Below are positions 7,133-47,394 of a DNA stretch of 64,000 nt, one piece after another. This DNA comes from Escherichia coli (GTDB taxonomy: Bacteria; Pseudomonadota; Gammaproteobacteria; Enterobacterales; Enterobacteriaceae): the NCBI RefSeq assembly GCF_001677475.2, contig NZ_CP015229.1. One strand, 5' to 3'. A program made the translations under genes and the position numbers. Positions within the stretch are counted from its first letter, which is position 1; each line of letters opens with the position of its first letter. Below the pieces are notes generated by a model that saw only the letters and a program-made list of their open reading frames with translations, made no database searches and had not been told where the DNA came from.

Positions 7133-7147
7133 CTATAAGGATAATCA

Positions 7148-24346: not shown

Positions 24347-24652
24347 ATGACCGTACGTATTCTGGCTGTGTGTGGCAACGGACAAGGCAGTTCCATGATC
24401 ATGAAGATGAAAGTGGACCAGTTTTTAACCCAATCAAACATTGACCACACGGTAAATAGCTGCGCGGTTGGCGAATACAAAAGCGAGTTGAGCGGCGCGG
24501 ATATCATCATCGCTTCTACGCACATTGCGGGCGAAATCACCGTGACCGGCAACAAATACGTGGTTGGCGTGCGCAACATGCTCTCTCCTGCTGACTTTGG
24601 CCCGAAACTGCTGGAAGTGATCAAAGAGCATTTCCCGCAGGATGTGAAGTAA
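24347..24652 (+). CDS. ulaB: ascorbate PTS EIIB component
   Basis: 101 aa from [16 protein letters not shown]. Confidence 0.9.
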
Positions 24653-24661
24653 GGACGCGCC

Positions 24662-25139: not shown

Positions 25140-25790
25140 ATGTCATTACCGATGTTGCAAGTCGCGCTGGACAACCAGACTATGGATAGCGCCTACGAAA
25201 CCACTCGCCTGATTGCCGAAGAAGTCGACATTATCGAAGTGGGCACCATTCTGTGCGTGGGCGAAGGCGTGCGTGCGGTTCGCGATCTGAAAGCGCTTTA
25301 CCCGCACAAAATCGTTCTGGCAGACGCCAAAATTGCCGATGCGGGCAAAATCCTCTCTCGTATGTGCTTCGAAGCCAACGCTGACTGGGTGACCGTTATT
25401 TGCTGTGCGGATATCAACACCGCCAAAGGTGCTCTGGACGTTGCAAAAGAGTTTAACGGCGACGTGCAGATCGAACTGACCGGTTACTGGACCTGGGAAC
25501 AGGCGCAGCAGTGGCGCGACGCAGGCATTCAGCAGGTGGTTTATCACCGCAGCCGTGACGCACAGGCCGCAGGCGTAGCGTGGGGCGAAGCGGACATTAC
25601 CGCGATCAAACGTCTTTCCGATATGGGCTTCAAAGTGACCGTCACTGGTGGCCTGGCGCTGGAAGATCTGCCGCTGTTCAAAGGCATTCCGATTCATGTG
25701 TTTATCGCTGGTCGCAGCATCCGTGATGCCGCTTCTCCGGTTGAAGCCGCGCGTCAGTTCAAACGTTCCATCGCCGAACTGTGGGGCTAA
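25140..25790 (+). CDS. ulaD: 3-keto-L-gulonate-6-phosphate decarboxylase
   Basis: 216 aa from [16 protein letters not shown]. Confidence 0.9.
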
Positions 25791-25799
25791 GGAGCGGAT

Positions 25800-26654
25800 A
25801 TGTTGTCCAAACAAATCCCGCTTGGCATCTATGAAAAAGCGCTCCCCGCCGGGGAGTACTGGCTGGAACGGCTGCAACTGGCAAAAACGTTAGGCTTCGA
25901 TTTTGTCGAGATGTCGGTAGATGAAACGGACGATCGCCTGTCGCGCCTCGACTGGAGCCGCGAGCAGCGTCTGGCGCTGGTGAATGCGATTGTTGAAACC
26001 GGCGTGCGCGTGCCGTCCATGTGCCTTTCTGCTCATCGTCGTTTCCCGCTGGGCAGCGAAGATGACGCGGTACGGGCGCAGGGGCTGGAGATTATGCGTA
26101 AAGCTATCCAGTTCGCCCAGGACGTTGGCATTCGCGTAATCCAACTGGCGGGCTATGACGTTTACTATCAGGAAGCCAATAACGAAACGCGTCGTCGTTT
26201 CCGTGACGGCCTGAAAGAGAGCGTTGAGATGGCAAGCCGTGCGCAGGTGACGCTGGCAATGGAGATCATGGATTATCCATTGATGAACTCCATCAGCAAG
26301 GCGCTGGGCTATGCGCACTATCTCAACAACCCGTGGTTCCAGCTCTATCCGGATATCGGCAACCTGTCGGCGTGGGACAACGACGTGCAGATGGAATTGC
26401 AGGCCGGAATTGGGCATATCGTCGCGGTGCATGTGAAAGACACCAAACCAGGCGTCTTCAAAAATGTGCCATTTGGCGAAGGCGTAGTGGATTTCGAACG
26501 TTGCTTCGAAACGCTCAAACAGAGTGGCTATTGCGGGCCGTACCTGATTGAGATGTGGAGCGAAACGGCGGAAGACCCGGCGGCAGAAGTGGCGAAAGCG
26601 CGTGATTGGGTGAAAGCGCGCATGGCGAAAGCGGGCATGGGGGAGGCGGCATAA
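25800..26654 (+). CDS. ulaE: L-ribulose-5-phosphate 3-epimerase
   Basis: 284-aa TIM-barrel ORF. Confidence 0.9.
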
Positions 26655-30375: not shown

Positions 30376-30645
30376 TGTATCGTTGCCTGTTTAATGTTTT
30401 TATAAATATCTCAGCTGAATGTTTACAGAATAAAGAATCGATATTAATAAAAATAAGTTTGTTTTCTGAAGTAGTGAAAATAGCGGATGGTGAAAGATAT
30501 TAATATCAAAAATCGCTCATTGTGGATATAACGATGCAGCAGGGAGGGGGGATATGATTGACAACGCGTTGGTAAGCGAGGTTCGATAACTCAAGCTTCT
30601 TTAAAAACGCCATAACCTCAATTATAGCGTTTTTATTTAAAATAA

Positions 30646-31923
30646 TTAGTGGGTAGCTAACTGTACTTGTGGTTCTTCATCTTTAACTTTGATAAGCGTC
30701 CACAACGCAATAGCACCAATAATGTCAAAGAAAGCCAGGGCAATAAAGAACGGCGCGAAGCCGATAATGTGAACGAATGCCCCGATGAACAGGTTGAAAA
30801 TCAACTGACCGCTCCACGCACAGGCTCCTGCCATACCCACTGCGGTAGCTACTTCGTCCTTTTTGAACAGATCGCCACCCAGAGTTGCTGCTACAGTAGA
30901 AAGACATTGATGCGAGAACGCGCCAATACTAATCAGTAATACGGCAATGTAGGGATTTTCGACAATACTCACCAGACCAATCGTCATCATAATGACGGCT
31001 GCAATAGTGAAGGTAATTCTTCGTGAGTTAATTAAACTCACGCCGCGATCGTGGAAGAACTTCGCGACAAAACCACTGGCTAAACAGCCGAGATCGCCCA
31101 GCAGGAAAGGCAGCCAGACGAACATGGCAATTTCTTTCAGGCTAAAATGCAGCGTTTCGACGAAGAAAATCGGCACCCAGAAGTTAATGGTTCCCCATGC
31201 CGGGTCTGCGAGAAAACGCGCGATGCCAATCCCCCAGAAATTACGTTGGCTGAGGATATGCTTGATTGACGTTTTTTCTTTCTTATCTGTTTTAAGATGC
31301 TGTTCTTGCCCTGATTCAATATAGTGGCGCTCTTCATCAGAAAGGCGTTTGGCATCTTTCGGATCTTTATAACAAAAGAACCAAAATAAAGCCGCGAGCA
31401 AAGCAAGGCTACCTGAAACAATAAACGCAAATTGCCAGCTATGAAACATAATGCACCAGGCAATCAACGGTGGAGCAAGCATCGCGCCGAGTGAGGTGCC
31501 CATATTGAAAACACCTGTCGCCACGCCACGCTCTTTTGCCGGAAACCATGTTGATGCGGTTTTTACACCTGCCGGAATTGCCGACGCTTCGCTGAAACCC
31601 ATCAGGGCGCGCATAAATGCCAGACCTGACCATGTTCCGGTTAGTGCATGGCCCATTGTCGCCAGGCCCCAAATTGCGGCACATATCGCAAAACTTAACT
31701 TCAGACCTACGGTATCAATAAAGAAGCCCATTACCGGTTGCCCTAATGTATAGGCCAACTGGAATGCACTGACAATCCATGAATATTGTTCTTTGGTTAT
31801 TCCGGTTGTCTCCATAATCGTTGGAGCCGCAATACCTAACGCCGTTCTGTCCAGATAATTGATTACAGTGATAAAGCATACGAGGGCAATCATATGCCAT
31901 CGATAATTCTTTATTTTATTCAT
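30646..31923 (-). CDS. MFS transporter, anion:cation symporter (ACS) type (hexuronate/galactonate/tartrate-permease-like)
   Basis: 425 aa, about 12 hydrophobic segments, N-terminal INYLDRTALGIAAP motif; AAGG SD 7 nt upstream. Confidence 0.75.
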   Translation of the reverse strand: MNKIKNYRWHMIALVCFITVINYLDRTALGIAAPTIMETTGITKEQYSWIVSAFQLAYTLGQPVMGFFIDTVGLKLSFAICAAIWGLATMGHALTGTWSGLAFMRALMGFSEASAIPAGVKTASTWFPAKERGVATGVFNMGTSLGAMLAPPLIAWCIMFHSWQFAFIVSGSLALLAALFWFFCYKDPKDAKRLSDEERHYIESGQEQHLKTDKKEKTSIKHILSQRNFWGIGIARFLADPAWGTINFWVPIFFVETLHFSLKEIAMFVWLPFLLGDLGCLASGFVAKFFHDRGVSLINSRRITFTIAAVIMMTIGLVSIVENPYIAVLLISIGAFSHQCLSTVAATLGGDLFKKDEVATAVGMAGACAWSGQLIFNLFIGAFVHIIGFAPFFIALAFFDIIGAIALWTLIKVKDEEPQVQLATH

Positions 31924-32015
31924 TTTTAAACCTTTTAATTATATTAATAAACCCTGGTTGTTGGTATTTCCATGTAATAGGCAATAAAAATCAGGTACAG
32001 AGAAAATATTGAAAA

Positions 32016-34088
32016 TTATTGTGTGTAAATGTCTCCCTTTAAAAAGTCTGGCCAGTTTTTTTCAAAGTAAATACCGTTAATACACGGTTGCATACGTAAA
32101 GACTTTACTTCGGTAATAAAAGAACCTTGCGAATATTGAATTGTTAATTTGTGATTTTTATCTTCAGCGAGTTCAGAGCGAAAACGCCATTCTTCTTTTA
32201 CGCCGCGACGAGTTTGTGGTAGGCATTTGCCTTGTGGATCAATAACCATCCGCGCCCCACGACTGCCGCCACCAGCATCAATATAATGCGTTAATTGTGT
32301 TAATACCGCGGCAGAAGTCAGCGCCATATGCCGCCACATAAACAGCTCGGAAACTTCACCCACATGTTTGATTGCCAATCCATGCCGTTGGACAAATTCG
32401 TTCAATAGCAGGGCATCGCGAGTGGCGCGTCGGACTTTATCGGCATGGCAAATAAATCCCGCATAGTCAGACATTCGTGCCTGAATTTTTTCTCTCACAA
32501 CCGACAACGGCATCCCGGTCCCGTTATCGTGCGCCTGAGTAATGATCTCTCTTATAGAAGCCAGTGCCGGAGCTGCCAGCTGTGCTATATCTCCATCAAT
32601 ATTCCGCTTTTGCGTGCAACCAATAAAACGTGCCAGACGCACGGCAAAAACCTGCCCGGCATTCAATGCCGCACCACCAGGGCGAGTGACGCCGTGTGTG
32701 CCAGCAACTTCCCCCACTGCAAAACAACCGGGCAGAGATGTTTGTCCCCAGATATCCACTTCAATGCCGCCATTCATATGCTGATTATTCATGGCAAACT
32801 GCAATGGCTGCGTGGTGAGATCGTAACCGTGCATCTTATACAGCGAGATAGACAGCGGATTCATTCGTTGCAGTCGTTCGATGGGCGATGGCGCCAGGGC
32901 GTCGTTATTTTCCAGATACGCGCGAACGTCGTCGTCCAGTCGTTCTAATGAGAATGGCAGGTCACCCGGCACAGGTTCAGGATTGCGATTGAAATCCATA
33001 AATACCTGACGCCCTGATTGCTGCTCTTGCGCCACCGCCATATCTAACAAGCTGGAGCCAAAATCCATTACCCGCGTGGCGTGGAACGGCCACTGATAGC
33101 CTTTACGGAAGATGTTTGAAGCCAGCTCCTGGGTGGTGCGATAGTAATCTGCGAGGAAGTTATACTCGTTGCCCTCGGCATCCACGGAATAGATATATGG
33201 GATCACTTGTACATAGGTGCCGGACAAATTCCACGGAAACGTGCTGCGCGGCGTGCCTATACCAAACTGGCTTTCGGTCAGATTAGTTAGTGTCAGGCCT
33301 TCCTCCAGCGCCAGCCCCAGCGAGCCAAAACATTTGTGTGGGTACACACTGTCGCGATAAAGCTCGCCCGGCCCGCCTGTTGCCAGTACCACATTGGGCG
33401 CAGTCACAATTGCCAGCCCCCACGGGTTATGGGCGCGGGAACCGGTTGCGAGGATAGCCCCGGCCACACGATCTTCGCCGTTTTCACCGCGTTGATGCAG
33501 CAGTTTAATCACCGTTGCACTGGTCAACAGTGGGATGGCGAGGCGCTGCACTTCTTCGAGCAATACTTTCACCATCAGACGAGAAGTGCGCGGCCCACAG
33601 GAGGTTGCGCGTCCGGCTTCGTCATGGTCGGTCTGATAACGGAGAATTGCACCATAGCGATCTTCCGGTAATTCCAGACCGAGATATTGCAGCCCGCCAA
33701 GGGTATGTAGGGAACCGACCGCTTCGACATACGCCGTGTCGTGATCCATCGCACCGCCGCTCGCCAGTGCTTCAGCAAGTTTTGCGAAGTTATCGCCGTT
33801 GCCCGCCGTTGCGGCGGTAAACAGCGTCTGTTTATCGGAACCGGAGCAGGCCGATGTTCCCATGTATAACCCGGCGGTGGCGATTAGCACATTTTGCTGG
33901 CGACGTTTCAGTTCAACCGCCGCACGTAATCCTGCCGCGCCGCTACCAACGACCAGAGCATCTGTTTGCCAGAGCGGGTAATCAACACCGTCCACCGTGA
34001 CAATTGACGTTGGCTCTGCTGACACAAAACCCTTCGGGAAAGTGACGTGCGTCAGCGCATCGAGGATGGCGTCATCAGTCTGGCTCAT
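32016..34088 (-). CDS. FAD-dependent oxidoreductase, fumarate-reductase/succinate-dehydrogenase flavoprotein-like, with extra C-terminal region
   Basis: 690 aa; N-terminal dinucleotide fold VVGSGAAGLRAAVEL; start overlaps upstream gene stop (ATGA). Confidence 0.7.
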   Translation of the reverse strand: MSQTDDAILDALTHVTFPKGFVSAEPTSIVTVDGVDYPLWQTDALVVGSGAAGLRAAVELKRRQQNVLIATAGLYMGTSACSGSDKQTLFTAATAGNGDNFAKLAEALASGGAMDHDTAYVEAVGSLHTLGGLQYLGLELPEDRYGAILRYQTDHDEAGRATSCGPRTSRLMVKVLLEEVQRLAIPLLTSATVIKLLHQRGENGEDRVAGAILATGSRAHNPWGLAIVTAPNVVLATGGPGELYRDSVYPHKCFGSLGLALEEGLTLTNLTESQFGIGTPRSTFPWNLSGTYVQVIPYIYSVDAEGNEYNFLADYYRTTQELASNIFRKGYQWPFHATRVMDFGSSLLDMAVAQEQQSGRQVFMDFNRNPEPVPGDLPFSLERLDDDVRAYLENNDALAPSPIERLQRMNPLSISLYKMHGYDLTTQPLQFAMNNQHMNGGIEVDIWGQTSLPGCFAVGEVAGTHGVTRPGGAALNAGQVFAVRLARFIGCTQKRNIDGDIAQLAAPALASIREIITQAHDNGTGMPLSVVREKIQARMSDYAGFICHADKVRRATRDALLLNEFVQRHGLAIKHVGEVSELFMWRHMALTSAAVLTQLTHYIDAGGGSRGARMVIDPQGKCLPQTRRGVKEEWRFRSELAEDKNHKLTIQYSQGSFITEVKSLRMQPCINGIYFEKNWPDFLKGDIYTQ

Positions 34089-35626
34089 GCGTCCTCCATT
34101 GGCGTAAACAGGCTACTTTCCATCAGGCGCGGCTGGTTGATAATTGGACGGAAAGCCATGAACGGCAGAATGTCGCGGTCAATCTCCACGCCCGGCGCGA
34201 TTTCAATTAATTCAACGCCTTCTGCCGTTAACTGAAACACCGCGCGTTCAGTGATATACAACACTTCCTGACCGCTGTGCTGTGCGTAGGCGGCGCTAAA
34301 AGTGATTTTTTCCACCTGAGTAACCAGTTTAGGGATTTGACCTGACTGGGCGATATGCAAGCCATCTGGCGTTACATCAATCTTGCTGCCTTTGGCGTCG
34401 AACGTGCCGCAGAACACCACCTTACGGGCGTTTTGCGCAATTTCGAGAAATCCGCCGGGGCCAATCAGATTGCCATTGAGATGGGAGACGTTGACGTTAC
34501 CGTACTGATCCATCTCTCCCATGCCGAGGAAGGTGATATCGATCCCTCCGCCACTGTAGAACTCAAATTGATCGAGTGATGGAATAATGGCATCGGCGTT
34601 GCGGGCGCAGCCGAAAAACGCATCATCCAGCATCATACCGTTATGCACGCCTTGCTCGACGCTCAGCCATAAACTTTGGTAAGGCACGCCTTCGCGCAGC
34701 GCTACTCCTGGAATGCCGCCGGGAATACCAAAGCCAAAGTTGGTTGAAGCGCCAGCTACCAGTTCGCGTGCTGCCCGACGGGCAATCAGGCGACGTACCG
34801 GATGACTAACCAGTTCAATAGCGTCGTTAGAACTCAGACGGCGATGTTGGCCGCTGATGGTCAGGTCGTAACCGCCAAGATAGGTTTGTGGCTGTTCGCG
34901 GTGTTCAACGATGCCATCAACCAGAATGCCCGGTAATTTGACTCGGCGTGGTTCAATCGCGCCAGCTTCCAGCACATCGCGTACCTGTACAAACACTTTG
35001 CCGCCGCTGTTGTGTGCTGCCAGCGCCATGGAATAGCTATCCATATCAATCGCTTCTTCTTCAAGGCTGACGTTGCCCCGAGGATCGGCATAAGTGCCAC
35101 GCAAAATCGCGTAATCGACTTTGAAAGGGCGATAACGAAGTTTGGTTTCACCGTCGATTTCAATCAGTTCTACCAGGTCGTCGGTAGTGCATTCATTCGA
35201 CTTACCGCCGCCATTGCGTGGATCAACAAACGATCCCAGCCCAACGTGGGTAAAAAGCCCCGGACGTCCGGCGCCGATCTCCCGTAGCAGTGCCTGAATC
35301 ACGCCACCAGGAAAACAATAGGCTTCAATCGCGTTATTTTTTACCAGCGCCTGCATTTTGGGTGACCAGGTAAAGTGTCCGGCAATAATGCGTTTGAGCA
35401 TTTCAGCATGAGCGAAGCGGTTCGTGCCTTTGCAGTCGCGATCGCCAATGCCCAGCGAGTGGATTAATGTCAGATCGCGCGGGTGTCCGGTTTGCAGGAA
35501 GCGCGCTTCAATGGCTGCCAGAATATGGTCGGCTTCCACCATGCCGCCGCCGTTACCGCTAATGGCAATGGTTGCGCCATCCTGAATTTGCGCCGCCAGT
35601 GCCTCGGCGGTTGTTATCTTACGCAT
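34085..35626 (-). CDS. CoA-transferase, family I-like (YdiF/propionate-CoA-transferase-like)
   Basis: 513 aa; overall resemblance to two-domain family I CoA-transferases; assignment by eye, needs HMM confirmation. Confidence 0.6.
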   Translation of the reverse strand: MRKITTAEALAAQIQDGATIAISGNGGGMVEADHILAAIEARFLQTGHPRDLTLIHSLGIGDRDCKGTNRFAHAEMLKRIIAGHFTWSPKMQALVKNNAIEAYCFPGGVIQALLREIGAGRPGLFTHVGLGSFVDPRNGGGKSNECTTDDLVELIEIDGETKLRYRPFKVDYAILRGTYADPRGNVSLEEEAIDMDSYSMALAAHNSGGKVFVQVRDVLEAGAIEPRRVKLPGILVDGIVEHREQPQTYLGGYDLTISGQHRRLSSNDAIELVSHPVRRLIARRAARELVAGASTNFGFGIPGGIPGVALREGVPYQSLWLSVEQGVHNGMMLDDAFFGCARNADAIIPSLDQFEFYSGGGIDITFLGMGEMDQYGNVNVSHLNGNLIGPGGFLEIAQNARKVVFCGTFDAKGSKIDVTPDGLHIAQSGQIPKLVTQVEKITFSAAYAQHSGQEVLYITERAVFQLTAEGVELIEIAPGVEIDRDILPFMAFRPIINQPRLMESSLFTPMEDA

Positions 35627-35635
35627 ACAATTTCC

Positions 35636-36412
35636 TTAGTGATTATGGAAGCTCACGCTACTTTTTTCGGCAAATGCCTGCGTCGCCTGCTGGCAATCCT
35701 GAGTGGCGGACATTAATCCAGCCAGTAACTGGTGTGGGTATTCAGCGTGTTTATTTTCCAGTGCCAGAATCAGCTGCTTAATATGCGCCAGTGCCACCGG
35801 ACCACATTTTTCCAGCTGCGCTAACTGGTTCGCCATCCAGCTTTCCACCTGTTCTTTTTCTACTACTTCATCAATTAAATTCGCCGCCTGGGCTTCATGC
35901 GCCGTCAGACGTTTACCTAGCATCAGCATCTGGCGACCGACCACTGGGCCGACCTGATTAATCACGCGTTCAATGCCCATCCAGCCAGGCACCATGCCGA
36001 GCATGACTTCCGGGTTAGAAAATTTCGCGCTGGGGCGAGCGATTCGAATATCGCAGCACAAGGCAAGTTCAATACCGCCGCCGATGGTATGACCGTTGAG
36101 ATTCGCAACCGTTAATTGCGGTAAATTGCGCAGGCGATTAAAAACGTCATTGCCGCGTTTAATCCATTTTCTGCCCATATCTAATGGCGAATAGGCCGAC
36201 CACGATTTAATATCACCGCCCGCACAAAAGAATTTATCGCCGATTGCCGTTAATTCGACTAATCGTAATGTGGTGTCGTTTTCAATTTCATTTAAATAAT
36301 GGTCGAGAGATTCAATCATCTCTTCGTTAATAGCATGACATTTCTCTTCACGGTTCAACGTCAGGCGGCAGGAAGCCGCCGCTCTGCTGAACAGAACGGG
36401 TTGGTCACTCAT
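35636..36412 (-). CDS. enoyl-CoA hydratase/isomerase (crotonase fold)
   Basis: 258 aa; crotonase signatures FCAGGDIKSW and GGGIELALCCD, plus PE motif (SNPEVMLGMVPG). Confidence 0.8.
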   Translation of the reverse strand: MSDQPVLFSRAAASCRLTLNREEKCHAINEEMIESLDHYLNEIENDTTLRLVELTAIGDKFFCAGGDIKSWSAYSPLDMGRKWIKRGNDVFNRLRNLPQLTVANLNGHTIGGGIELALCCDIRIARPSAKFSNPEVMLGMVPGWMGIERVINQVGPVVGRQMLMLGKRLTAHEAQAANLIDEVVEKEQVESWMANQLAQLEKCGPVALAHIKQLILALENKHAEYPHQLLAGLMSATQDCQQATQAFAEKSSVSFHNH

Positions 36413-36421
36413 GATTATTCC

Positions 36422-37264
36422 TTAGCAATAATTCGCGATGCGATCGACGCTAATATCCAGCGTGTTGTTAATATCTTTCTGCCACCAGTACGGTGAGAAT
36501 ATTTCCAGTTCAATAGCGCCATTAAATCCGGCGTTTTCAACCAGTCGACGAATTGACGGAATATTTATCACGCCATCTCCCGGCATTCCCCGGTCATTGA
36601 CCAGATCGGTGGTCGGCACTAACCAGTCGGAAACATGAAACGCGAGAATACGTTTTCCGGCGCGCAGGAGCTGGCTGGCCAGATCCGGATCCCACCAGAC
36701 ATGGTAAACATCCACAGCCACGCCGAGGCCAAATTCGCCATCGGGATCGAGTTCATCACACCAGTCCAGCGCCTGGCGTAACGTGCACAGGCAAGAGCGA
36801 TCGGCGGCGGTCATTGGGTGCAGTGGCTCCAGCGCAATCGGCACGCCAACGTCTTTCGAATGTGGCAGTAACTGGCGTATCCCTTGTTTCACCTGTTCCC
36901 GTGCTTCATACAGATCTTTTGTGCCCTGCGGTAACCCGCCAACCACCTGCATATAACAGGCGGCGTTCAGCACCGCTGCGTCGTCCAGCGCCCGGCGGTT
37001 ATCATCAATTGCCAGTTTGCGTTCCGCCAGCGTCGGCGCGGTGTAGTAGGTGCTACGGCATAAACCGGAAACGCGCATGTTATTGACGGCAAGCTGGCGG
37101 GCGATCTGCTGAAGATCTTCACCCTGCAACTCTCTGCGCCAGGGGGCGATCGCACCGATACCGCGTGCGGCACAGGCATCAATAATGGCGGGTAGCGGCG
37201 TTTTATAGCCCAGTGTTGCGGTATTGATACTGAATAAATCCGGGCGTTGTAACAGATCTCTCAT
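36422..37264 (-). CDS. xylose-isomerase-like TIM-barrel protein (sugar phosphate isomerase/epimerase or dehydratase family)
   Basis: 280 aa; resemblance to AP-endonuclease-2/xylose-isomerase-like TIM barrels by eye; needs HMM confirmation. Confidence 0.55.
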   Translation of the reverse strand: MRDLLQRPDLFSINTATLGYKTPLPAIIDACAARGIGAIAPWRRELQGEDLQQIARQLAVNNMRVSGLCRSTYYTAPTLAERKLAIDDNRRALDDAAVLNAACYMQVVGGLPQGTKDLYEAREQVKQGIRQLLPHSKDVGVPIALEPLHPMTAADRSCLCTLRQALDWCDELDPDGEFGLGVAVDVYHVWWDPDLASQLLRAGKRILAFHVSDWLVPTTDLVNDRGMPGDGVINIPSIRRLVENAGFNGAIELEIFSPYWWQKDINNTLDISVDRIANYC

Positions 37265-37273
37265 GATTCAGCC

Positions 37274-38065
37274 TCAGAAGCGCGGCATACTTAAGCCGCC
37301 GTCGATGGCGACCGCCTGACCACAGGTGTAAATCAGTTTACCTTCCGCCATCGCGCGGACGGTGGAGGCAATATCAGCCGGATAACCCCAACGTCCCCAC
37401 GGCACCAGACCTTTGGCAATCAGTTCGTCGTAATAAGCCGTTGCTGGAATAGTCATATCGGTTTTGATGAGACCAGGGCGCACTTCATAGACGCCAATTT
37501 GTTCGTTGCAAAGGCGAGCAGCAAACAGACGAGCAGCGGCAGAAACGGCGGTTTTGGCAATTGTGTATTCGCCGCGATTCATCGCCAGCATGATGGCGTT
37601 GATGGAACTGACAAAAATAATTGAGCGGTGCGGGAATTCTGTTTCTGGTTTTGGCTGTGCGAGCAGACGTTTACTGAATGCCTGTGCAAGGAAGAACGGT
37701 GCGCGGGTGTTAATGGCAATATTTTGGTCGAAGCTGTCTGGTTCCAGGTCGAGAAGGTCACCGCGTTTTTTCACTGAAATGCCTGCGTTGTTGAGCAGGC
37801 AGTCCAGACGTCCCCACTGGTTTTGCGCTGCGTCGAGCATCTCTTCATGCAGGGAGAGATCGCCAACATCGGCAGGGAAGCAAATCACTTCCACGCCTTC
37901 CGCCAGACATTCTTGTTGTGTGACATGTAATTTTTCAACGCTATCGGCATCCGGACGATCATTAATCAGCAGATTAAATCCGCCACGCGCAAGCTCCAGC
38001 GCACAGCCCTTTCCAATACCACGAGCGGCTCCGGTAATCACGGCAACAGGACGAGTGGATTTCAT
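37274..38065 (-). CDS. short-chain dehydrogenase/reductase (SDR)
   Basis: 263 aa; TGAARGIGKG cofactor motif, NNAG, catalytic Ser and YxxxK (YTIAK). Confidence 0.85.
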   Translation of the reverse strand: MKSTRPVAVITGAARGIGKGCALELARGGFNLLINDRPDADSVEKLHVTQQECLAEGVEVICFPADVGDLSLHEEMLDAAQNQWGRLDCLLNNAGISVKKRGDLLDLEPDSFDQNIAINTRAPFFLAQAFSKRLLAQPKPETEFPHRSIIFVSSINAIMLAMNRGEYTIAKTAVSAAARLFAARLCNEQIGVYEVRPGLIKTDMTIPATAYYDELIAKGLVPWGRWGYPADIASTVRAMAEGKLIYTCGQAVAIDGGLSMPRF

Positions 38066-38133
38066 ACAATAGCTCTCTTTTTTTGAATTTTGTTTCCTTA
38101 GTGATGATTAGCTTGCGACTGGAGGATAAAAAG

Positions 38134-38155
38134 ATCAACCATCTAGTTGGTTGAT
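38134..38155. promoter_or_regulatory. candidate TetR-family operator (perfect 8-6-8 palindrome)
   Basis: ATCAACCA-tctagt-TGGTTGAT in the 212-bp divergent intergenic region between the SDR operon and the TetR gene. Confidence 0.45.
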
Positions 38156-38277
38156 ATGCGATGACGATCACAGGACATTTGATAACCTGATGAAAGTACA
38201 AGTTTTTGCCCTTTTTTCTGAAGCTGAAATCAAATCAGGTTATGATAGTCACCACGAAGAGGTCGTGGGGAAGCGTT

Positions 38278-38925
38278 ATGTATATTGATACCAGCAACGT
38301 ACAGAGCCTGAAGGAAAAGCTGCTGTTATGCGCGGTTAATGAATTTGCCGAATATGGTTATGAAGGGGCCAGGGTCGATAATATTGTTAAGTCTGCGGGG
38401 TGTAGTAAACAGACGGTTTATCACCACTTTGGTAATAAAGAAAATTTATTTATTGAAGTACTGGAATATACCTGGAACGATATTCGAAAAAAAGAAAAGG
38501 CCCTTGATTTCTCAGATCTTCCGCCACAAAAAGCCATTGAGAAAATTATTGATTTTACATGGGATTATTATATTGCTAATCCCTGGTTTTTAAAAATTGT
38601 GCATAGTGAAAATCAAAGTAAAGGTGTGCATTATGCAAAATCACAGCGTCTCTTAGAAATTAACCATGCGCACTTGCAGTTAATGGAATCCTTATTGGAG
38701 GAAGGGAAGAAACACAATATTTTTAAGCCAGATATCGACCCATTGCAGGTGAATATTAATATTGCTGCGCTTGGGGGATATTATTTGATCAACCAGCATA
38801 CGCTTGGCCTGGTTTATCACATCAGTATGGTTTCACCCCAGGCACTGGAAGCCAGACGTAAGGTCATCAAAGAGACGCTCCTTAGCTGGCTTTTGGTTGA
38901 CCCCTCATCTACCGCGCACGAATAA
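38278..38925 (+). CDS. TetR/AcrR-family transcriptional regulator
   Basis: 215 aa from ATG 38278 (GGGGAAG SD upstream); N-terminal [31 protein letters not shown]; track ORF is N-extended. Confidence 0.8.
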
Positions 38926-39547
38926 AACTGCCATCCGGCTGACGGGTAAACAGGACCTGTTGATTATTCCCCGTATCAATGGTTAAGCCCGTCACCACGC
39001 CGCTGGCGTTCTGGCGGATTTTCACCATCTGCCCGTTTTGCAAATTACTCAGCGGCTTATCCGCGCCTTCTACCTGCGCCATTGCATAGACATCGGTAGC
39101 GGGCAGTCCGTGGTCGCGGAACAGCTGCGCCATCGTTTTACCGGGTTCGACACGGTAAGAGCGCCATTGATTATCAATTCCGCTATCTGGCTGGAATGGT
39201 TGCGTTTGGGTGGTTTGCGGCTGCTCTTCTGGCTGGCCTTCCTGTATTGGTTCTGGAGCGACCGGGGCCACCTGATCAGGATCATTTTGTGGCGTAACTA
39301 GCTGCGCCCGCAGCTGTTCTTCTGTCGGCAGTTGTGATTGCGACTGAATATCTAACTGCGCTTCACGCGTCACCACCGGCGCGTTGGGCGTATCATCAGA
39401 TGGAAGCAGAAATCCGACCACCAATACAATGGCGGCAATAATGATCCCCCGACGATGCATCGGCGGCAGCGGGTCCATGAAGCGAAAATTGTCCGGCGCG
39501 TGCCAGACTTTCTCCAGGGTTGGTTTTAGTTCAAAGCGCCCGGGCAT
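38909..39547 (-). CDS. ytfB: OapA/LysM-domain cell-division protein YtfB
   Basis: 212 aa from [18 protein letters not shown], strong AGGAGG SD; Pro/Gln-rich linker and C-terminal OapA-like domain. Confidence 0.85.
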
Positions 39548-39764
39548 GGTTTCCTCCTGCTCCGCGTCTTGTTCCTCAATCATAGCCTATGAATAAGCTA
39601 ACGCTATGATGTCCGTGGTAAACCCGCCTTTATTATATTCATACGGGATATTGCTATTGTTTCTTTTTCCCCGGGATTTGTCATCATTCCCGCGACAAAG
39701 TTTTACCCAAAGAAGTGTGGCTGATATGCTGCCCGCTACTTTATACCCTAAGAAAGGAAATACG

Positions 39765-40385
39765 ATGACCACCCCAACTTTTGACACCATCGAAGCGCAA
39801 GCAAGCTACGGCATTGGTTTGCAGGTAGGGCAACAACTGAGTGAATCTGGCCTGGAAGGGCTGCTGCCAGAAGCACTGGTTGCAGGCATTGCTGATGCGC
39901 TGGAAGGCAAACATCCGGCTGTTCCGGTTGATGTGGTGCACCGCGCGCTGCGTGAAATCCACGAACGCGCCGATGCCGTTCGTCGTCAGCGTTTCCAGGC
40001 GATGGCTGCTGAAGGTGTGAAATACCTGGAAGAAAACGCCAAAAAAGAAGGTGTAAATAGCACCGAATCTGGCCTGCAATTCCGCGTGATCAACCAGGGT
40101 GAAGGCGCAATTCCGGCACGTACCGACCGCGTTCGTGTTCATTACACCGGAAAACTGATCGACGGCACCGTGTTTGACAGCTCCGTCGCTCGCGGCGAGC
40201 CAGCTGAATTCCCGGTTAACGGCGTGATCCCTGGCTGGATTGAAGCACTGACTCTGATGCCGGTAGGTTCTAAATGGGAACTGACTATCCCGCAGGAACT
40301 GGCATATGGCGAGCGTGGCGCAGGCGCGTCCATCCCTCCGTTCAGCACCCTGGTGTTTGAAGTCGAACTGCTGGAAATCCTCTAA
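39765..40385 (+). CDS. fklB: FKBP-type peptidyl-prolyl cis-trans isomerase
   Basis: 206 aa from [20 protein letters not shown] domain at C-terminus. Confidence 0.9.
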
Positions 40386-40692
40386 GCAGCGCATTCTGTT
40401 CCCCTCGAGCCAGAGGGGAGCAGGCATTCAGCAATAAACCCTTCAGTTTGCCAAACGGCGCTATTTTGTGTTGCAAAGACCCCGTAAGCGTGTATTTTTG
40501 TGAGCTGTTTCGCGTTATCACCGTGATATGACACTCACTTTAAACATAAAATTAACATTAGATCTAAATCTTAGTATTCATCCCGCGTATTGTTACCTAA
40601 TATCGATGAGTCCCGATACAGATTCGTCGTATCATAGACTGACTAAAGGCCGTAGAGCCTGAACAACACAGACAGGTACAGGAAGAAAAAAC

Positions 40693-42105
40693 ATGGTAGA
40701 TCAGGTAAAAGTCGTTGCCGATGATCAGGCTCCGGCTGAACAGTCGCTACGGCGCAATCTCACAAACCGACATATTCAGCTTATTGCCATTGGCGGTGCC
40801 ATTGGCACAGGGTTGTTTATGGGGTCCGGCAAAACGATTAGCCTTGCCGGGCCGTCGATCATTTTCGTTTATATGATCATTGGTTTTATGCTCTTTTTCG
40901 TGATGCGGGCAATGGGGGAATTGCTGCTTTCGAATCTGGAATACAAATCTTTTAGTGACTTCGCTTCCGATTTACTCGGGCCGTGGGCAGGATATTTCAC
41001 CGGCTGGACTTACTGGTTCTGCTGGGTTGTAACCGGTATGGCAGACGTGGTGGCGATCACGGCTTATGCTCAGTTCTGGTTCCCCGATCTCTCCGACTGG
41101 GTCGCCTCGCTGGCGGTGATAGTGCTGCTGCTGACGCTCAACCTCGCCACCGTGAAAATGTTCGGTGAGATGGAGTTCTGGTTTGCGATGATCAAAATCG
41201 TCGCCATTGTGTCGCTGATTGTCGTCGGCCTGGTCATGGTGGCGATGCACTTTCAGTCACCGACCGGTGTGGAAGCGTCATTCGCGCATTTGTGGAATGA
41301 CGGCGGCTGGTTCCCGAAAGGTTTAAGTGGCTTCTTTGCCGGATTCCAGATAGCGGTTTTCGCTTTCGTGGGGATTGAGCTGGTAGGTACAACAGCTGCG
41401 GAAACCAAAGATCCAGAGAAATCACTGCCACGCGCGATTAACTCAATTCCGATCCGTATCATTATGTTCTACGTCTTCGCGCTGATTGTGATTATGTCCG
41501 TGACGCCGTGGAGTTCGGTAGTCCCGGAGAAAAGCCCGTTTGTTGAACTGTTCGTGTTGGTGGGTCTGCCTGCTGCCGCCAGCGTGATCAACTTTGTGGT
41601 GCTGACCTCTGCCGCTTCTTCCGCTAACAGCGGCGTCTTCTCTACCAGTCGTATGCTGTTTGGTCTGGCGCAGGAAGGTGTGGCACCGAAAGCGTTCGCT
41701 AAACTCTCTAAGCGCGCAGTACCCGCGAAAGGGCTGACCTTCTCTTGTATCTGTCTGCTCGGCGGCGTGGTGATGCTGTATGTGAATCCCAGCGTGATTG
41801 GCGCGTTTACGATGATTACAACCGTTTCCGCGATTCTGTTTATGTTCGTCTGGACGATTATCCTTTGCTCGTACCTGGTGTATCGCAAACAGCGTCCGCA
41901 CCTGCATGAGAAATCAATCTACAAGATGCCGCTCGGCAAGCTGATGTGCTGGGTATGTATGGCATTCTTTGTGTTCGTGGTCGTGCTGCTGACACTGGAA
42001 GATGATACCCGCCAGGCGCTGCTGGTTACCCCGCTGTGGTTTATCGCTCTGGGGCTGGGCTGGTTGTTTATTGGTAAGAAGCGGGCTGCTGAACTGCGGA
42101 AATAA
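40693..42105 (+). CDS. cycA: D-serine/D-alanine/glycine APC-family transporter
   Basis: 470-aa polytopic membrane ORF. Confidence 0.93.
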   Translation: MVDQVKVVADDQAPAEQSLRRNLTNRHIQLIAIGGAIGTGLFMGSGKTISLAGPSIIFVYMIIGFMLFFVMRAMGELLLSNLEYKSFSDFASDLLGPWAGYFTGWTYWFCWVVTGMADVVAITAYAQFWFPDLSDWVASLAVIVLLLTLNLATVKMFGEMEFWFAMIKIVAIVSLIVVGLVMVAMHFQSPTGVEASFAHLWNDGGWFPKGLSGFFAGFQIAVFAFVGIELVGTTAAETKDPEKSLPRAINSIPIRIIMFYVFALIVIMSVTPWSSVVPEKSPFVELFVLVGLPAAASVINFVVLTSAASSANSGVFSTSRMLFGLAQEGVAPKAFAKLSKRAVPAKGLTFSCICLLGGVVMLYVNPSVIGAFTMITTVSAILFMFVWTIILCSYLVYRKQRPHLHEKSIYKMPLGKLMCWVCMAFFVFVVVLLTLEDDTRQALLVTPLWFIALGLGWLFIGKKRAAELRK

Positions 42106-42120
42106 CCGCATTATCATGCT

Positions 42121-42145
42121 GGATGGCGCAATGCCATCCAGCTTT
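42121..42145. terminator. Bidirectional terminator between convergent cycA and ytfE
   Basis: GGATGGCgcaaTGCCATCC hairpin followed by AGCTTTT. Confidence 0.55.
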
Positions 42146-42149
42146 TAGA

Positions 42150-42812
42150 TCACTCACCCGCCAGTGCGCGCGGGAACAGCACATTATTTTCCAGACTAAT
42201 GTGATCCATCAGGTCATCAATCAATTCATTGATACCGTTATACATCGCTTTCCAGGTGGTGCAGGCTTCCGGCGGCGGTGTGACATTATTGGTGGTGTGT
42301 TTAATCACTTCCAGCAGTTCGCCCGCTTCATCGTGCTCGCTTTCCATTACGCTGATTGGCCCCATTGCCTGGCTGCCCATGCCTTGTTTGATCATCGGGA
42401 AGAGGATCTGCTCTTCTTTCATCATGTGGCTGGAAAGCTCTTCATGCAGCATAGTCAGGTATTTTGTCAGCCCTTTTGGCACGCTCGGTTTGTCGGCGTG
42501 AACGCGCTCGACTTTAGTCGCTTGCAGGATCAGCTCCGGCAGTTGCTCGCGGTGACGATCGTGGTAGCGCACGATGATATGGTCGATGATTTCTGCCAGC
42601 GGGGCGCTACGCCAGTCTTTCTCAATCGGTTGTTCAGCAAGCTTTGCCAGCTCAGCTTCAATGACCTCAACATCCAGCTCTTTACGTGCCGCCGCACGCG
42701 CCAGCGTTTGCTTACCGCCGCAGCAGTAATCCATATCATATTTACGAAACAGCGCTGAAGCGCGAGGAATAGAGAGCGCCAGTTCACCTAAAGGTTGGTC
42801 GCGATAAGCCAT
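42150..42812 (-). CDS. ytfE: iron-sulfur cluster repair di-iron protein YtfE (RIC)
   Basis: 220-aa ORF with hemerythrin-like His/Glu residues. Confidence 0.9.
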
Positions 42813-42919
42813 AGCTGATACCTCATTCTTAATAAGATAAGATGTATTTTAAATGCATCTTTAAGGCGAATGCTATAACCCTTACGTAGCAGAGGCTTAT
42901 TTAACTCACAGCCAGCATG

Positions 42920-43894
42920 TCAACTTTCTGAGACAGATTCAGTTAAAGGTTTTTCCGGTTTTGCTCTGACTGCAATGACCACGCCAACCACTAACAGCGC
43001 GATACCGCTCAGCGTCATCAGCGGCGGCATTTGCTGGCGGAGTAAAAAGGTGTACAGCAAACCTGCCAGTGTTTCGAAAACAATCAGCGGCCCGAGAATC
43101 ACTGTCGGTAATCGCTGGCTGGCGACGTTCCAGCAGAGTGCGCCGACCCATGAGCAAAGCACGGCTATCGCAATCATCAGACTAATAAACACCAGCGGGC
43201 GGGGGCCAAAGGGTAGGGAGAAGTCCGGCGTTTGCGTATTCAGCCAGTAACAAGCGACGAGATAGCCGATAAGTGAAACCGGCAGTGTGACCAGCGCCTG
43301 CGCCGTTGCCCACATCATCGGATGTTTGTCGGGATTTTCCCGCAGCCAGCGGGCGTTGCGCAGGGCATACCATGCCCAGCAGACCACGGAAACTAACGCC
43401 AGCACGATGCCAGAGGTATAACGTGCCCAGTCAAAATCGGGGAGTCCGTGGTTTAACTCAGCAATATTCACGCACGCCAGGCCGATGCCAATACAAATCA
43501 GTGCCGGGGCGAGTCTTCCCCACGCGAGTTTGCCGTCGCGCTGGCTATAAAGCAGATTGGCAAAGACAGGAATCACCACCGGCAGGGTGCCGATAATCAT
43601 CGTGGAAACAGGCGCGCCAGTACGTTGAATGGCACTGGCAAGGCAGAAGTAATAAATGAGGTTGCCCATCATAGTGAGCATCAAGGCGGTAAGCCAGTCC
43701 CGACGCGCCAACTGACGCAAACGCACGCGTCCCAGCCAGGCAATGGGTAGCGCAATTAACCCTAACGCCAGATAACGCCCCATCGACTGCAACATCGCCG
43801 GGTATTCCGGCACAATCAACGGCCCGACAAAAATAAGCCCCCACATCAACCCTGCTAACAGGGCGTACAGCACGCCGCTAATCATTACTGGCAT
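42920..43894 (-). CDS. ytfF: EamA/DMT-family inner-membrane transporter YtfF
   Basis: About 10 hydrophobic segments; start could be ATG 43894 or 43885. Confidence 0.8.
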   Translation of the reverse strand: MPVMISGVLYALLAGLMWGLIFVGPLIVPEYPAMLQSMGRYLALGLIALPIAWLGRVRLRQLARRDWLTALMLTMMGNLIYYFCLASAIQRTGAPVSTMIIGTLPVVIPVFANLLYSQRDGKLAWGRLAPALICIGIGLACVNIAELNHGLPDFDWARYTSGIVLALVSVVCWAWYALRNARWLRENPDKHPMMWATAQALVTLPVSLIGYLVACYWLNTQTPDFSLPFGPRPLVFISLMIAIAVLCSWVGALCWNVASQRLPTVILGPLIVFETLAGLLYTFLLRQQMPPLMTLSGIALLVVGVVIAVRAKPEKPLTESVSES

Positions 43895-43992
43895 CCATTG
43901 ATCTGTCAGAAGAAAGTTCAGGAAGCAGACATGATTGCTCCCGGCATCCCGTCATTATCAGAGAGGATGCGGGAGGATGCCACTTTAATTAA

Positions 43993-44853
43993 CTAGTTAT
44001 TAACATTAAAAAGATTGCTTACGCTTTCGGCTAACGTTGTCGTCGGGCGACCAATCAGTTTACTCAGCGTTTTGCTGTCATCAAACAGACCGCCTTTTGA
44101 CGCGCCAACGTCAGAATCCGCCAGCATATCCGCCAGTCCGTCGGGCAGTCCGACGCTTTTCAGCGCAGCGGCGAAATCGGCTTCGCTCAGATTTTGATAG
44201 GTAACCTGTTTGCCGCTCTGTTTGGTCAGCTCTGCCGCTAACTGTGTCAACGTCCAGGCGCTGTCGCCCGCCAGTTCGTAAACCTTGCCTTCGTGACCGG
44301 CTTCGCTAATCACGCGCGAGGCAGCGGCTGCATAATCTGCCCGCGTTGCTGAGGCAATTTTGCCATTGCCCGCCGCACCGATAAATACGCCGTGTTCCAC
44401 TGCTGCCGGGGCGCTGGCGAGGTAGTTTTCGGTGTACCAGCCGTTGCGCAGAAGGGTGTAAACGATGCCAGAATCAGCCAGCATTTTCTCCGTCTCGATG
44501 TGCTCATCGGCGAGGCCGAGCGGGGAGGTATCTGCATGTAGCAGGCTGGTATAAGCGATAAATTTCACGCCAGCCGTCTTTGCGGCATTAATAACATTAC
44601 GATGCTGCGGGGCACGTTGACCCACTTCGCTGGAAGAGATCAGCAGTAGTTTTTCCACTCCCTGAAGTGCAGATGTCAGTGCGGCTTCATCGCCGTAGTC
44701 AGCCTGACGCACGGTAATGCCTTGTGCTGCCAGGGCCTGGGCTTTTGCCGGATTACGAACGATAGCCACTATTTGGCTGGCAGGAACAGTTTTCATCAAG
44801 GATTCAATAACATAGTGACCAAGTTGGCCAGTGGCACCAGTAATAGCGATCAT
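43993..44853 (-). CDS. qorB: NmrA-like NAD(P)H:quinone oxidoreductase
   Basis: 286-aa ORF with N-terminal Rossmann motif ITGATGQLG. Confidence 0.85.
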   Translation of the reverse strand: MIAITGATGQLGHYVIESLMKTVPASQIVAIVRNPAKAQALAAQGITVRQADYGDEAALTSALQGVEKLLLISSSEVGQRAPQHRNVINAAKTAGVKFIAYTSLLHADTSPLGLADEHIETEKMLADSGIVYTLLRNGWYTENYLASAPAAVEHGVFIGAAGNGKIASATRADYAAAASRVISEAGHEGKVYELAGDSAWTLTQLAAELTKQSGKQVTYQNLSEADFAAALKSVGLPDGLADMLADSDVGASKGGLFDDSKTLSKLIGRPTTTLAESVSNLFNVNN

Positions 44854-44941
44854 GGGAAGTCTCCATCGTTTTGTCTTGTGTTTAAATACGCTAACACCTA
44901 AACTTACTTTTAGTAAGTACGCACAAAAAGGTAAGTATGAA

Positions 44942-45322
44942 ATGAGTCAGGTTAGCCTGTCGCAACAACTGAAAGAGGGAAATCTCTTTGCGGAACAGTG
45001 CCCGTCGCGCGAGGTGTTGAAACACGTCACCAGCCGTTGGGGGGTATTGATTCTGGTGGCGCTACGCGAAGGCACTCATCGCTTTAGCGACCTGCGGCGC
45101 AAAATGGGCGGGGTGAGTGAAAAGATGCTTGCGCAGTCGTTACAGGCGCTAGAGCAGGATGGTTTTCTTAACCGTATAGCGTATCCGGTGGTGCCGCCGC
45201 ATGTGGAATATAGCCTCACGCCGTTGGGCGAGCAGGTGAGCGAAAAGGTTGCTGCACTGGCGGACTGGATTGAGTTGAATTTGCCCGAGGTGTTGGCGGT
45301 GCGGGATGAACGTGTGGCATAA
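44942..45322 (+). CDS. ytfH: HxlR-type transcriptional regulator YtfH
   Basis: 126 aa from MSQVSLSQQLKEG; divergent from qorB. Confidence 0.85.
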   Translation: MSQVSLSQQLKEGNLFAEQCPSREVLKHVTSRWGVLILVALREGTHRFSDLRRKMGGVSEKMLAQSLQALEQDGFLNRIAYPVVPPHVEYSLTPLGEQVSEKVAALADWIELNLPEVLAVRDERVA

Positions 45323-45323
45323 C

Positions 45324-45420
45324 TGCCGGATGCGCTGCGCTTATCTGGTCTACGGTGCATGGCTTGTAGGGCGGATAAGATGCGCCAGCATCGCATCCGC
45401 CAATAAATGCCGGATGCGGT
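45324..45420. repeat. REP elements
   Basis: GCCGGATGCGCTGCGCTTATCTGG and GGCGGATAAGATGCGCCAGCATCGCATCCGCC. Confidence 0.55.
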
Positions 45421-45450
45421 TGATGATTTATAGGCCGAAAAAGAAGTGTA

Positions 45451-47394
45451 TTACTTACTCAAATCCACCTGATAAATCGCAAACCCGATATCATCGGTCG
45501 CGACTTTATTCATCGGATATTGCCCTTTCTCTTTAATAAACGCTGCGGCTTTATCTGATGGAGAGGTTTCGAAACGGATATCCAGTTTCTTATCGCCAGC
45601 AATCGGTGCTAAACGCCAGTTGTTATCTGCCGCCGGGTGAATTTCCCCCGCACGTTTCGACTCATCAGCAATCCACGCTGCCAGCACCGAGCGGTTCTCA
45701 TCCGGTGAAGCAAAAGCGATATGGCTGTCGCCCGTACCAGCAAATTTGCCGCCGTAAGCGCGATAGTTATTGGTGGCAACGAGGAACATGGCGTTCGGAT
45801 CAATGGGTTTACCGTTAAAGGTCAGGTTCTTAATCCGCTCTGCATTGGCATTAACCACCTGACATTCACCGTCATAACGGGCGGGTTGGGTAACATCAAT
45901 CTGATAATTCACACCATCAATAACATCAAAGTTATAAGTGCGGAAACCATCCCAGTTGATGAGTGACTGTGGTTTCGTGCTGTTAGGATCAATCTGGTTA
46001 AACTGTCCGGCGGAGCACTCCAGCCACTCTTTCACCTCTTTACCGCTGGCTTTCACCACAATCAGCGTATTGGGGTAGAGATAAAGATCGGCGGCATTAC
46101 GGAAGGTCAACTGGCCTTTTTCCACCTCCACATAGCTTGCCGGGTCATTTTTGCGACCACCAACTTTAAACGGTGCGGCAGCTGAAAGCACCGGCAGTTT
46201 TGCCAGATCCGGATCGCCCTGAATGTAATGTTCGACATACGCTTTTTGCGCGTTGTTCACGACTTGCACGGTCGGATCGTCCTGCACCAGCGCCAGATAG
46301 CTATACATATTGTCGGCAGATTTACCGATTGGCTTGCTGACAAACTGGCGTGTGGCATCGTGATCGGCTTTGAGTGTTTCTACCAGCTTGCTATCTTCCG
46401 CCGCGAGGGATTTTTTATTAGCGATGTCGTAAATCGGCCGTGCTTCCGCTTTCGCCTGCATCACCTGCCATTTACCGCTGTCATTACTGAGTTACAAGTC
46501 GACCACACCAAGATGATCGCCCCACATGCCCGGCATTACCGCCGGAACACCATTCAGCGTGCCTTTCGCGATATCAGCCCCTTCGATATCAGCAAAATCT
46601 TTACCTGGGAAAACGGCGTGAGCATGGCCAAACATAATGGCGTTAACGCCCGGAATTTCACTGAGGTAATAAACTGAGTTTTCCGCCATCACTTTATACG
46701 GATCGGCAGACAGCCCGGAATGCGCCAGAACGACAACGAGATCGGCACCTTTCTCACGCATTTCAGGCACGTATTTGCGCACAGTTTCTGTTATATCGTT
46801 AACGGTGACTTTGCCGGACAAATTGGCTTTATCCCACCCCATAATCTGCGGCGGCACCACGCCAATATAGCCAATCTTTAACGTCTGTTTTTTTCCGTCT
46901 TTATCGACCACTTCGGTGTCTTTAATTAAATACGGTGTAAACATGGGCTGTTTGGTTTTTGCGTCGATGACGTTGGCATTTACATAAGGGAATTTCGCTC
47001 CCGCCAGCGCATTTTTCAGGTAATCCAGACCGTAGTTAAACTCGTGGTTGCCAAGCGTGCCGACGGTATAGTCCAGCGTATTTAATGCCTTATAGACCGG
47101 GTGAATATCGCCTGCTTTTAAACCTTTCGCCGACATGTAATCTGCCAGCGGACTCCCCTGAATCAAATCGCCGTTATCGACCAGTACGCTGTTTTTCACT
47201 TCATTGCGGGCATCGTTAATCAGGCTTGCGGTACGTACCAGTCCGAATTTTTCCGTAGCGGTGTCTTTGTAATAATCGAAATCCATCATGTTGCTATGCA
47301 GATCAGTGGTTTCCATGATACGCAGATCGACCGTCGCTGCATTTACACTGGCGGCAATCAGCGTGGCCAGGAGCGTTGCGCTAAACTTAATCAT
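45451..47394 (-). pseudogene. cpdB: 2',3'-cyclic-nucleotide 2'-phosphodiesterase/3'-nucleotidase, interrupted by one in-frame TAA
   Basis: Track ORFs 46492..47403 and 45451..46464 are in the same frame; together 647 codons with one TAA at 46492-46494 (..[17 protein letters not shown]..). Confidence 0.8.

Follow-up and report, generated by a model that had tools for sequence, protein, structure and literature searches.

The operon and its junctions

Within the window (the whole 64-kb stretch of E. coli DNA analysed here), the minus strand carries six consecutive open reading frames that, judged by Pfam, NCBIfam and PDB searches, code for a short-chain dehydrogenase/reductase (SDR), a TIM barrel, a crotonase, a CoA-transferase, a flavoprotein and an MFS transporter. 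The SDR (37274-38065; 263 residues) matches Pfam adh_short_C2 with an E-value of 1.7e-41, as well as NCBIfam PRK12745. The second gene (36422-37264) encodes a xylose-isomerase-like TIM barrel of 280 residues (Pfam AP_endonuc_2, E = 6.4e-38), the nearest PDB entries to which are 3QC0 and 3JU2, from the uncharacterised SMc04130 (E about 3e-86); the third (35636-36412) encodes a crotonase, or enoyl-CoA hydratase, of 258 residues (Pfam ECH_1, E = 3.7e-46), whose closest solved structures in a PDB search are short-chain enoyl-CoA hydratases. These are followed by a fused, YdiF-like family-I CoA-transferase of 513 residues (34085-35626; Pfam CoA_trans; PDB 2AHU, YdiF, E = 8e-114) and by an FAD flavoprotein of the FrdA/NadB superfamily (32016-34088; 690 residues; Pfam FAD_binding_2, E = 8e-29). 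The flavoprotein shows weak similarity to NadB and FrdA in the PDB (best E = 1e-9) and belongs to a family of 418 cluster representatives at E <= 1e-30. The gene for the MFS transporter (30646-31923) lies downstream of the flavoprotein gene, after a gap of 92 bp; its product is placed in the anion:cation symporter (D-galactonate-type) family by Pfam MFS_1 and NCBIfam TIGR00893, the match to the latter scoring 315 bits, which is under that model's cutoff. Divergently from the operon, the plus strand carries a gene for a TetR/AcrR-family regulator (38278-38925; Pfam TetR_N and TetR_C_29) with a RefSeq orthologue in E. coli; its length of 215 residues is counted from the ATG of the E. coli annotation.

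A sequence-only reading of this DNA had drawn attention to the junctions between the five enzyme genes, and the coordinates and sequences that it gave are all borne out. The first three gaps are exactly 9 bp long, as it had claimed: the junction of the SDR and TIM-barrel genes reads TGAggctgaatcATG (spacer 37265-37273, minus strand), that of the TIM-barrel and crotonase genes TAAggaataatcATG (spacer 36413-36421, minus strand), and that of the crotonase and CoA-transferase genes TAAggaaattgtATG (spacer 35627-35635, minus strand). Because nine is a multiple of three, the SDR, TIM-barrel, crotonase and CoA-transferase genes share one reading frame; the first spacer contains a second in-frame TGA. 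The CoA-transferase stop codon indeed overlaps the flavoprotein start codon as ATGA, over 4 bp (34085-34088, minus strand), with a Shine-Dalgarno sequence (SD), GGAGGA, inside the CoA-transferase coding sequence. The upstream stop codons had also been said to adjoin the SD; the relation is closer still, the stop codon being itself the 5' end of the SD, which reads TGAGG at the first junction and TAAGGA at the second and third. UAAGGA is fully complementary to the 3'-terminal 6 nt of 16S rRNA, and it (or UGAGG at the first junction) would pair with the 3' tail of that molecule. An SD that starts with the stop codon and lies 5-7 nt before the AUG entails a gap of about 9 nt, and thus accounts for both the equal spacing and the letters that the junctions have in common. 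The SD ends 5-6 nt before the ATG at the 9-bp junctions, and 3-6 nt before it over all four. The two TAAGGA junctions had been called near-identical, which is accurate for the stop codon, the GGAA of the SD and the ATG, where all of the matching bases lie (10 of 15), but not for the spacer, in which none of the 5 bases match.

In several genera the six-gene locus is flanked by ytfB on one side and by rplI/yjfZ on the other. Taken in the order SDR>TIM barrel, TIM barrel>crotonase, crotonase>CoA-transferase and CoA-transferase>flavoprotein, the gaps are 9/9/9/-4 in all four Escherichia species examined (E. coli, E. whittamii and E. albertii are tabulated), 9/9/10/-4 in Klebsiella oxytoca and Salmonella enterica, and 8/9/33/-14 in Entomohabitans. 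TGAGG at the first junction is kept in eight of eight relatives, and so is TAAGGA at the second, where the spacer bases vary. Overall, only one junction, in Entomohabitans, departs from the invariant stop-plus-SD cores, whereas the spacer bases drift; this argues for selection on the stop codon, the SD and their approximate spacing, and not for 'exactly 9'. The strict 9/9/9 pattern in the four Escherichia species could nevertheless reflect a tighter selection on spacing than 'about 9'. Beyond this clade the context of the flavoprotein gene changes, and the junctions found there range from 4 to 133 bp. In distant taxa the gene occurs with those for an SDR, a TIM barrel and a TRAP or MFS transporter, with those for a CoA-transferase and a crotonase in the opposite order, or with those for GMC and GFO-type oxidoreductases. 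The five enzymes are thus no indivisible unit.

Transcription and translation across the junctions

A spacer of 9 bp is too short for a promoter or a terminator. Between positions 30000 and 39700, promoter-like sites show no excess over shuffled sequence (11 versus 13.0 ± 2.6), terminator-like sites are not above expectation (16 versus 11.9 ± 4.0), and an Rfam scan at E <= 1 returned no match. In the region that separates the TetR and SDR genes, scanning for the sigma-70 consensus gave no convincing match; weak promoter-like matches lie within the SDR gene (37938-37909) and just upstream of the MFS gene (32043-32015). The divergent promoter region does contain an inverted repeat, the 23-bp palindrome ATCAACCAACTAGATGGTTGATC (38133-38155). 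Mean identity of the TetR-SDR intergenic region over four genera is only 46%, and yet the palindrome hardly varies between Escherichia, Klebsiella, Salmonella and Entomohabitans, with a single base different in the last, which makes it a strong candidate for the operator. A TetR-family gene adjoining the operon and a palindromic candidate operator in the promoter region are the arrangement of TetR-repressed catabolic operons. The locus resembles these on both counts, as its regulator gene is divergent and the conserved 23-bp palindrome lies between that gene and the operon. With no room for a promoter or terminator in the spacers, and with this conserved palindrome ahead of the first gene, a single regulated transcript most likely runs through at least the five enzyme genes. 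Transcription from the SDR gene to the MFS transporter gene would probably start at one promoter under the control of the divergent TetR repressor, which would bind the palindrome.

Both kinds of junction seen here, 9-bp spacers with the stop codon in the SD and ATGA overlaps, have already been described from E. coli operons across the genome. K-12 has an excess of spacers of 9-13 bp, and in that strain 56 gene pairs have a spacer of exactly 9 bp, 48 of them with an SD; TAA is favoured at 9-10 bp as it can pair with the 3'-AUU-5' of the 16S tail, and a TGAGG pattern is likewise described, mainly for spacers of 7-8 bp (Palleja et al. 2009, PMC2784483). Junctions of +9 to +12 nt account for 203 of 2,987 same-strand pairs; transcripts have been characterised for 201 of these, and in 194 cases the pair lies on a polycistronic one (Huber et al. 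2023, PMC10666635). All three 9-bp junctions of the operon show the features of this class: the gap itself, an SD in the spacer and a stop codon that contributes to it, through TAA in two cases and through the TGAGG variant in one, with the SD at a normal distance from the ATG and the genes in an apparent polycistronic unit (compare PMC2784483, PMC10666635). We see no essential difference between them and other junctions of this class, except that TGAGG here stands in a 9-bp spacer and that three consecutive junctions of identical length are mildly unusual.

How ribosomes would reach the downstream genes can be judged from the SDs and from the predicted folding of the mRNA. An SD of its own precedes each of these genes, and the energy of its duplex with the 16S tail is -5.6 kcal/mol for the TIM barrel, -6.0 kcal/mol for both the crotonase and the CoA-transferase, and -9.3 kcal/mol for the flavoprotein. 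The energy needed to open the region from -15 to +5 around each start, computed with a thermodynamic model in a context of -100 to +60, was compared with a background of 200 random positions in the same mRNA (9.1 ± 3.4 kcal/mol). It is low at the starts of the TIM barrel (6.1 kcal/mol, 18th percentile), the crotonase (5.6 kcal/mol, 15th percentile) and the CoA-transferase (6.1 kcal/mol, 18th percentile), and high at that of the flavoprotein (12.45 kcal/mol, 82nd percentile). At the three 9-bp junctions the ribosome-binding sites are thus predicted to be open, and not sequestered as in coupling by RNA unfolding, so that independent initiation is possible there. Accessible sites with their own SDs are the profile of independent initiation, which the authors of the native-pair study also deem 'more likely' for the +9 to +12 (+10) class (PMC10666635). 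Most likely, the TIM-barrel, crotonase and CoA-transferase sites would be used mainly by newly binding ribosomes, to which ribosomes terminating 12 nt upstream would add at most partial help.

Coupling by termination-reinitiation is established for junctions with a stop/start overlap of -4 or -1, or with no more than a few nt between the two genes. Of the four junctions, only that between the CoA-transferase and flavoprotein genes belongs to this class, the other three being at +9. Its strong SD in RNA predicted to be structured is the classic profile of coupling, and it is the only junction that is likely to be coupled. Translation of the flavoprotein would depend strongly on translation upstream, by termination-reinitiation or by unfolding. 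In its overlap and in the strong SD within the upstream gene, it is like the ATGA (-4) coupled pairs described by Huber et al. (2019, PMC6728339) and Huber et al. (2023), and the overlap is kept in Escherichia, Klebsiella and Salmonella; this likeness applies to one junction only. Subunits of heteromeric complexes are especially common among ATGA pairs; what the CoA-transferase and flavoprotein genes share with them is the architecture of the junction.

Taken together, these features are, we believe with good confidence, best explained by ordinary SD-led junctions in one polycistronic catabolic operon. The sequence-only reading had gone further, and had taken the 9-bp junctions and the ATGA overlap to point to obligate co-expression and stoichiometric coupling of all five enzymes; in such a chain of obligate coupling, a single stream of ribosomes would hold the enzymes at fixed, equal ratios. 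Part of this stands, in that the genes are likely to be co-expressed from one transcript. In favour of coupling, none of the four junctions has room for transcription signals of its own, and the spacing does not vary within Escherichia and varies little in Klebsiella and Salmonella. Moreover, the footprint of a ribosome terminating at +9 nt covers the next AUG, so that some reinitiation or steric interplay at these junctions is unavoidable. A 2025 review likewise states that, where genes lie this close, the next start site is blocked by the terminating ribosome, and that the efficiency of coupling is highest at small distances and drops as the distance grows (PMC12548453). That the coupling is obligate, or that it sets stoichiometry, is unsupported: the genes have SDs of their own that differ in strength, the folding model predicts accessible sites at the 9-bp junctions, and one junction has widened to 33 bp in Entomohabitans. 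Reinitiation in native E. coli pairs, furthermore, is lower by 5-70% already at +2 nt and by 40-80% at +14 nt, and is nearly gone at +38 nt (PMC10666635). Elsewhere, the flavoprotein gene is found with only the SDR and TIM-barrel genes, or with only the CoA-transferase and crotonase genes, and in other orders. Nor was a natural fusion of the CoA-transferase to the flavoprotein found beyond deletion variants, or any sign of a complex among the tests run; two candidate fusions from E. coli, P0008 and P0029, proved to be shortened deletion variants, and a third, P0148, consists of an OYE-type FMN domain, and no CoA-transferase, fused to the FAD domain. We therefore regard a chain of obligate coupling as unlikely.

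Coupling of a different kind may be at work, although this is improbable. Being in frame, strictly conserved and built with the stop codon inside the SD, the +9 junctions might serve as a dedicated coupling device, in which pairing between the SD and the anti-SD would hold the post-termination ribosome and allow it to restart 12 nt downstream. If so, translation upstream would set the output of each downstream enzyme far more tightly than present models of the +10 class allow.

The 9-bp junction as a general feature

There are seven occurrences of TAAGGA-N6-ATG in the window, where shuffled sequence would give 0.31; this is far from random, as befits a general functional signal. Five of the seven matches are true 9-bp stop-to-start junctions, two of them in this operon; the others join amiB to mutL (161), ulaB to ulaC (24650) and ulaD to ulaE (25788), so that the motif marks a generic class of junction. 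The ulaABCDEF operon, whose genes and regulator, UlaR, are unrelated to those studied here, combines the two TAAGGA-N6-ATG junctions with a -1 overlap at ulaE>ulaF, and its other junctions measure 13 and 15 bp. The annotation of the homologous 49 kb in E. coli contains 20 same-strand junctions no longer than 50 bp, and 6 of these measure exactly 9 bp; outside this operon the figure is 3 of 16.

The equal gaps could also be an artefact of the choice of start codons, or plain chance, and so carry no signal. In favour of such a view, the 9/9/9 run was picked out post hoc, and 9 bp is the commonest positive spacer, so that runs are to be expected (PMC2784483 and the local annotation). By our estimate, the chance of three exact 9s is about 7e-3 at the local frequency of 3/16, and about 6e-5 if some 4% of short junctions genome-wide have this spacer, a frequency for which about 1,450 short junctions were assumed in all. 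An artefact of annotation is hard to reconcile with the start sites, since every open reading frame of the operon begins at the first start codon past an in-frame stop, leaving no possibility of an upstream extension, and since the starts agree with the RefSeq annotation of the E. coli orthologues and with alignments at residue 1 in other genera. The absence of any signal is at odds with stop-plus-SD cores that are conserved where the surrounding sequence varies. Chance or artefact as the whole explanation is thus very unlikely; the run of three consecutive 9s is a mild coincidence among junctions that are functional.

That the junctions are copies of a single linker, repeated by duplication, recombination or cassette-like assembly, is hardly credible and was rejected, for although two of them have TAAGGAA...ATG and their length in common, their identity is limited to the stop codon, the SD and the start codon with no match in the spacer, the motif recurs between the unrelated genes of the amiB-mutL and ula junctions, and across genera the spacer drifts while the functional bases stay, as expected of convergent constraint and not of shared descent.

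In any event, the equal short gaps and the common letters of the junctions are no evidence of stoichiometric coupling, and their value is that of a calibration point. As a discovery the junctions matter little; the operon in which they lie is the more useful subject.

Distribution and possible role of the operon

The operon is present at a coverage of at least 80% in 3,098 of 5,426 complete E. coli genomes (about 57%). K-12 has lost it, as the K-12 pseudogene ytfA, which corresponds to the C-terminal 133 residues of the TetR regulator at 98% identity, is a remnant of the operon's regulator. Searches of the literature by flanking genes, protein accessions, related PDB codes and product names found no paper on the operon, which its deletion in K-12 would explain.

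The PDB matches gave no substrate: those of the TIM barrel are uncharacterised structural-genomics entries only, those of the SDR and the crotonase are generic, and those of the flavoprotein are the weak ones to NadB and FrdA. Some indications come from the gene content. The type of transporter, an anion:cation symporter of the MFS here and a TRAP transporter in distant relatives, points to a carboxylate as the substrate. Inspection of its sequence shows that the crotonase retains both catalytic glutamates, and the presence of such a crotonase together with a CoA-transferase suggests that the substrate may be activated as a CoA thioester.

What the locus offers is an uncharacterised six-gene operon with its own TetR regulator, one of whose products is a flavoprotein from a large, unstudied family. 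Separately from the coupling device, but as part of the same improbable reading, it may encode a CoA-dependent pathway not described before, which would act on a hydroxy-carboxylate or a keto-carboxylate in E. coli strains other than K-12.

Junctions and reading frame of the enzyme genes

Because every gap measures 9 nt, the genes for the SDR, TIM-barrel, crotonase and CoA-transferase proteins are in one reading frame (window 35627-38065). The spacer between the SDR and TIM-barrel genes holds an additional in-frame TGA. The remaining two 9-nt spacers, TIM barrel to crotonase and crotonase to CoA-transferase, carry no in-frame stop, so that readthrough of the TAA codon would fuse the adjacent enzymes. 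TAAGGA-N6-ATG, the stop codon, SD and start motif of two of the operon's junctions, also forms 9-bp junctions elsewhere in the window, between amiB and mutL (161-175), ulaB and ulaC (24650-24664) and ulaD and ulaE (25788-25802); at 7136 and 14051 it represents SD and start sites without a long ORF upstream in that frame.

Flavoprotein and transporter

The 690-aa flavoprotein (window 32016-34088) belongs to a large uncharacterised family, with 418 cluster representatives at E <= 1e-30, which has members in Proteobacteria, Planctomycetota, Lentisphaerota and Verrucomicrobiota (locus records L005-L088). Its gene partners differ, and include the SDR and TIM barrel, the CoA-transferase and crotonase, GMC/GFO oxidoreductases, a PfkB kinase and a flavodoxin. 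The nearest solved structures are those of NadB/FrdA, with matches no better than about 1e-9. In some E. coli, a single ORF joins the N-terminus of the CoA-transferase to the flavoprotein (protein records P0008, 1078 aa, and P0029, 1043 aa). A functional fusion is disfavoured, since both ORFs are shorter than the two proteins summed; for the same reason, they look like the outcome of an internal deletion spanning the ATGA junction between the two genes.

The MFS transporter gene (window 30646-31923) has a GC content of about 0.43, compared with about 0.54 in the enzyme genes. Moreover, the Escherichia transporter is only 50-51% identical to those of Klebsiella or Salmonella, whereas the enzymes are 78-92% identical. 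This points to a replacement of the transporter gene in one of the lineages. In Entomohabitans teleogrylli (locus record L004), a gene for a MaoC-type dehydratase follows the transporter gene (L004:12657-13136). A reverse-transcriptase (RVT_1) gene and three large unannotated ORFs, adjoining rpsF in the same species (L004:15914-20076), may constitute a defence island.

Regulator and candidate operator

A 23-bp palindrome, ATCAACCAACTAGATGGTTGATC, lies between the TetR and SDR genes (38133-38155) and is conserved across genera; it is nearly unchanged in Escherichia, Klebsiella, Salmonella and Entomohabitans, the last differing at one base, within an intergenic region that is otherwise diverged among the four. 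The palindrome is the probable operator of TetR. About 12 nt upstream of it there is a conserved GTGATC. The TetR gene itself is low in GC (about 0.44), and its 3' end overlaps that of the convergent ytfB by 17 bp (window 38909-38925), an overlap that K-12 retains, there between ytfA and ytfB.

Loss, interruption and divergence in E. coli

The K-12 pseudogene ytfA (L089:2695-3096, in the K-12 locus record) corresponds to the C-terminal 133 residues of the operon's TetR regulator (window 38278-38925), with 98% identity. Since ytfA is a C-terminal remnant of this regulator, the whole operon has been deleted in K-12. At a coverage of at least 80%, the operon is present in 3,098 of the 5,426 complete E. 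coli genomes. An ISEcp1 element with blaCTX-M-15 interrupts the locus in strains 2021CK-00607 and N4220121, where the match is divided between two segments over a span of about 12 kb. Best identity to any complete E. coli genome is 95.4% for the operon region (window 30600-39600) and reaches 97.7% for the flanking core genes from cycA to cpdB (window 40000-46000); the operon allele in the window is more diverged than the neighbouring core genes.
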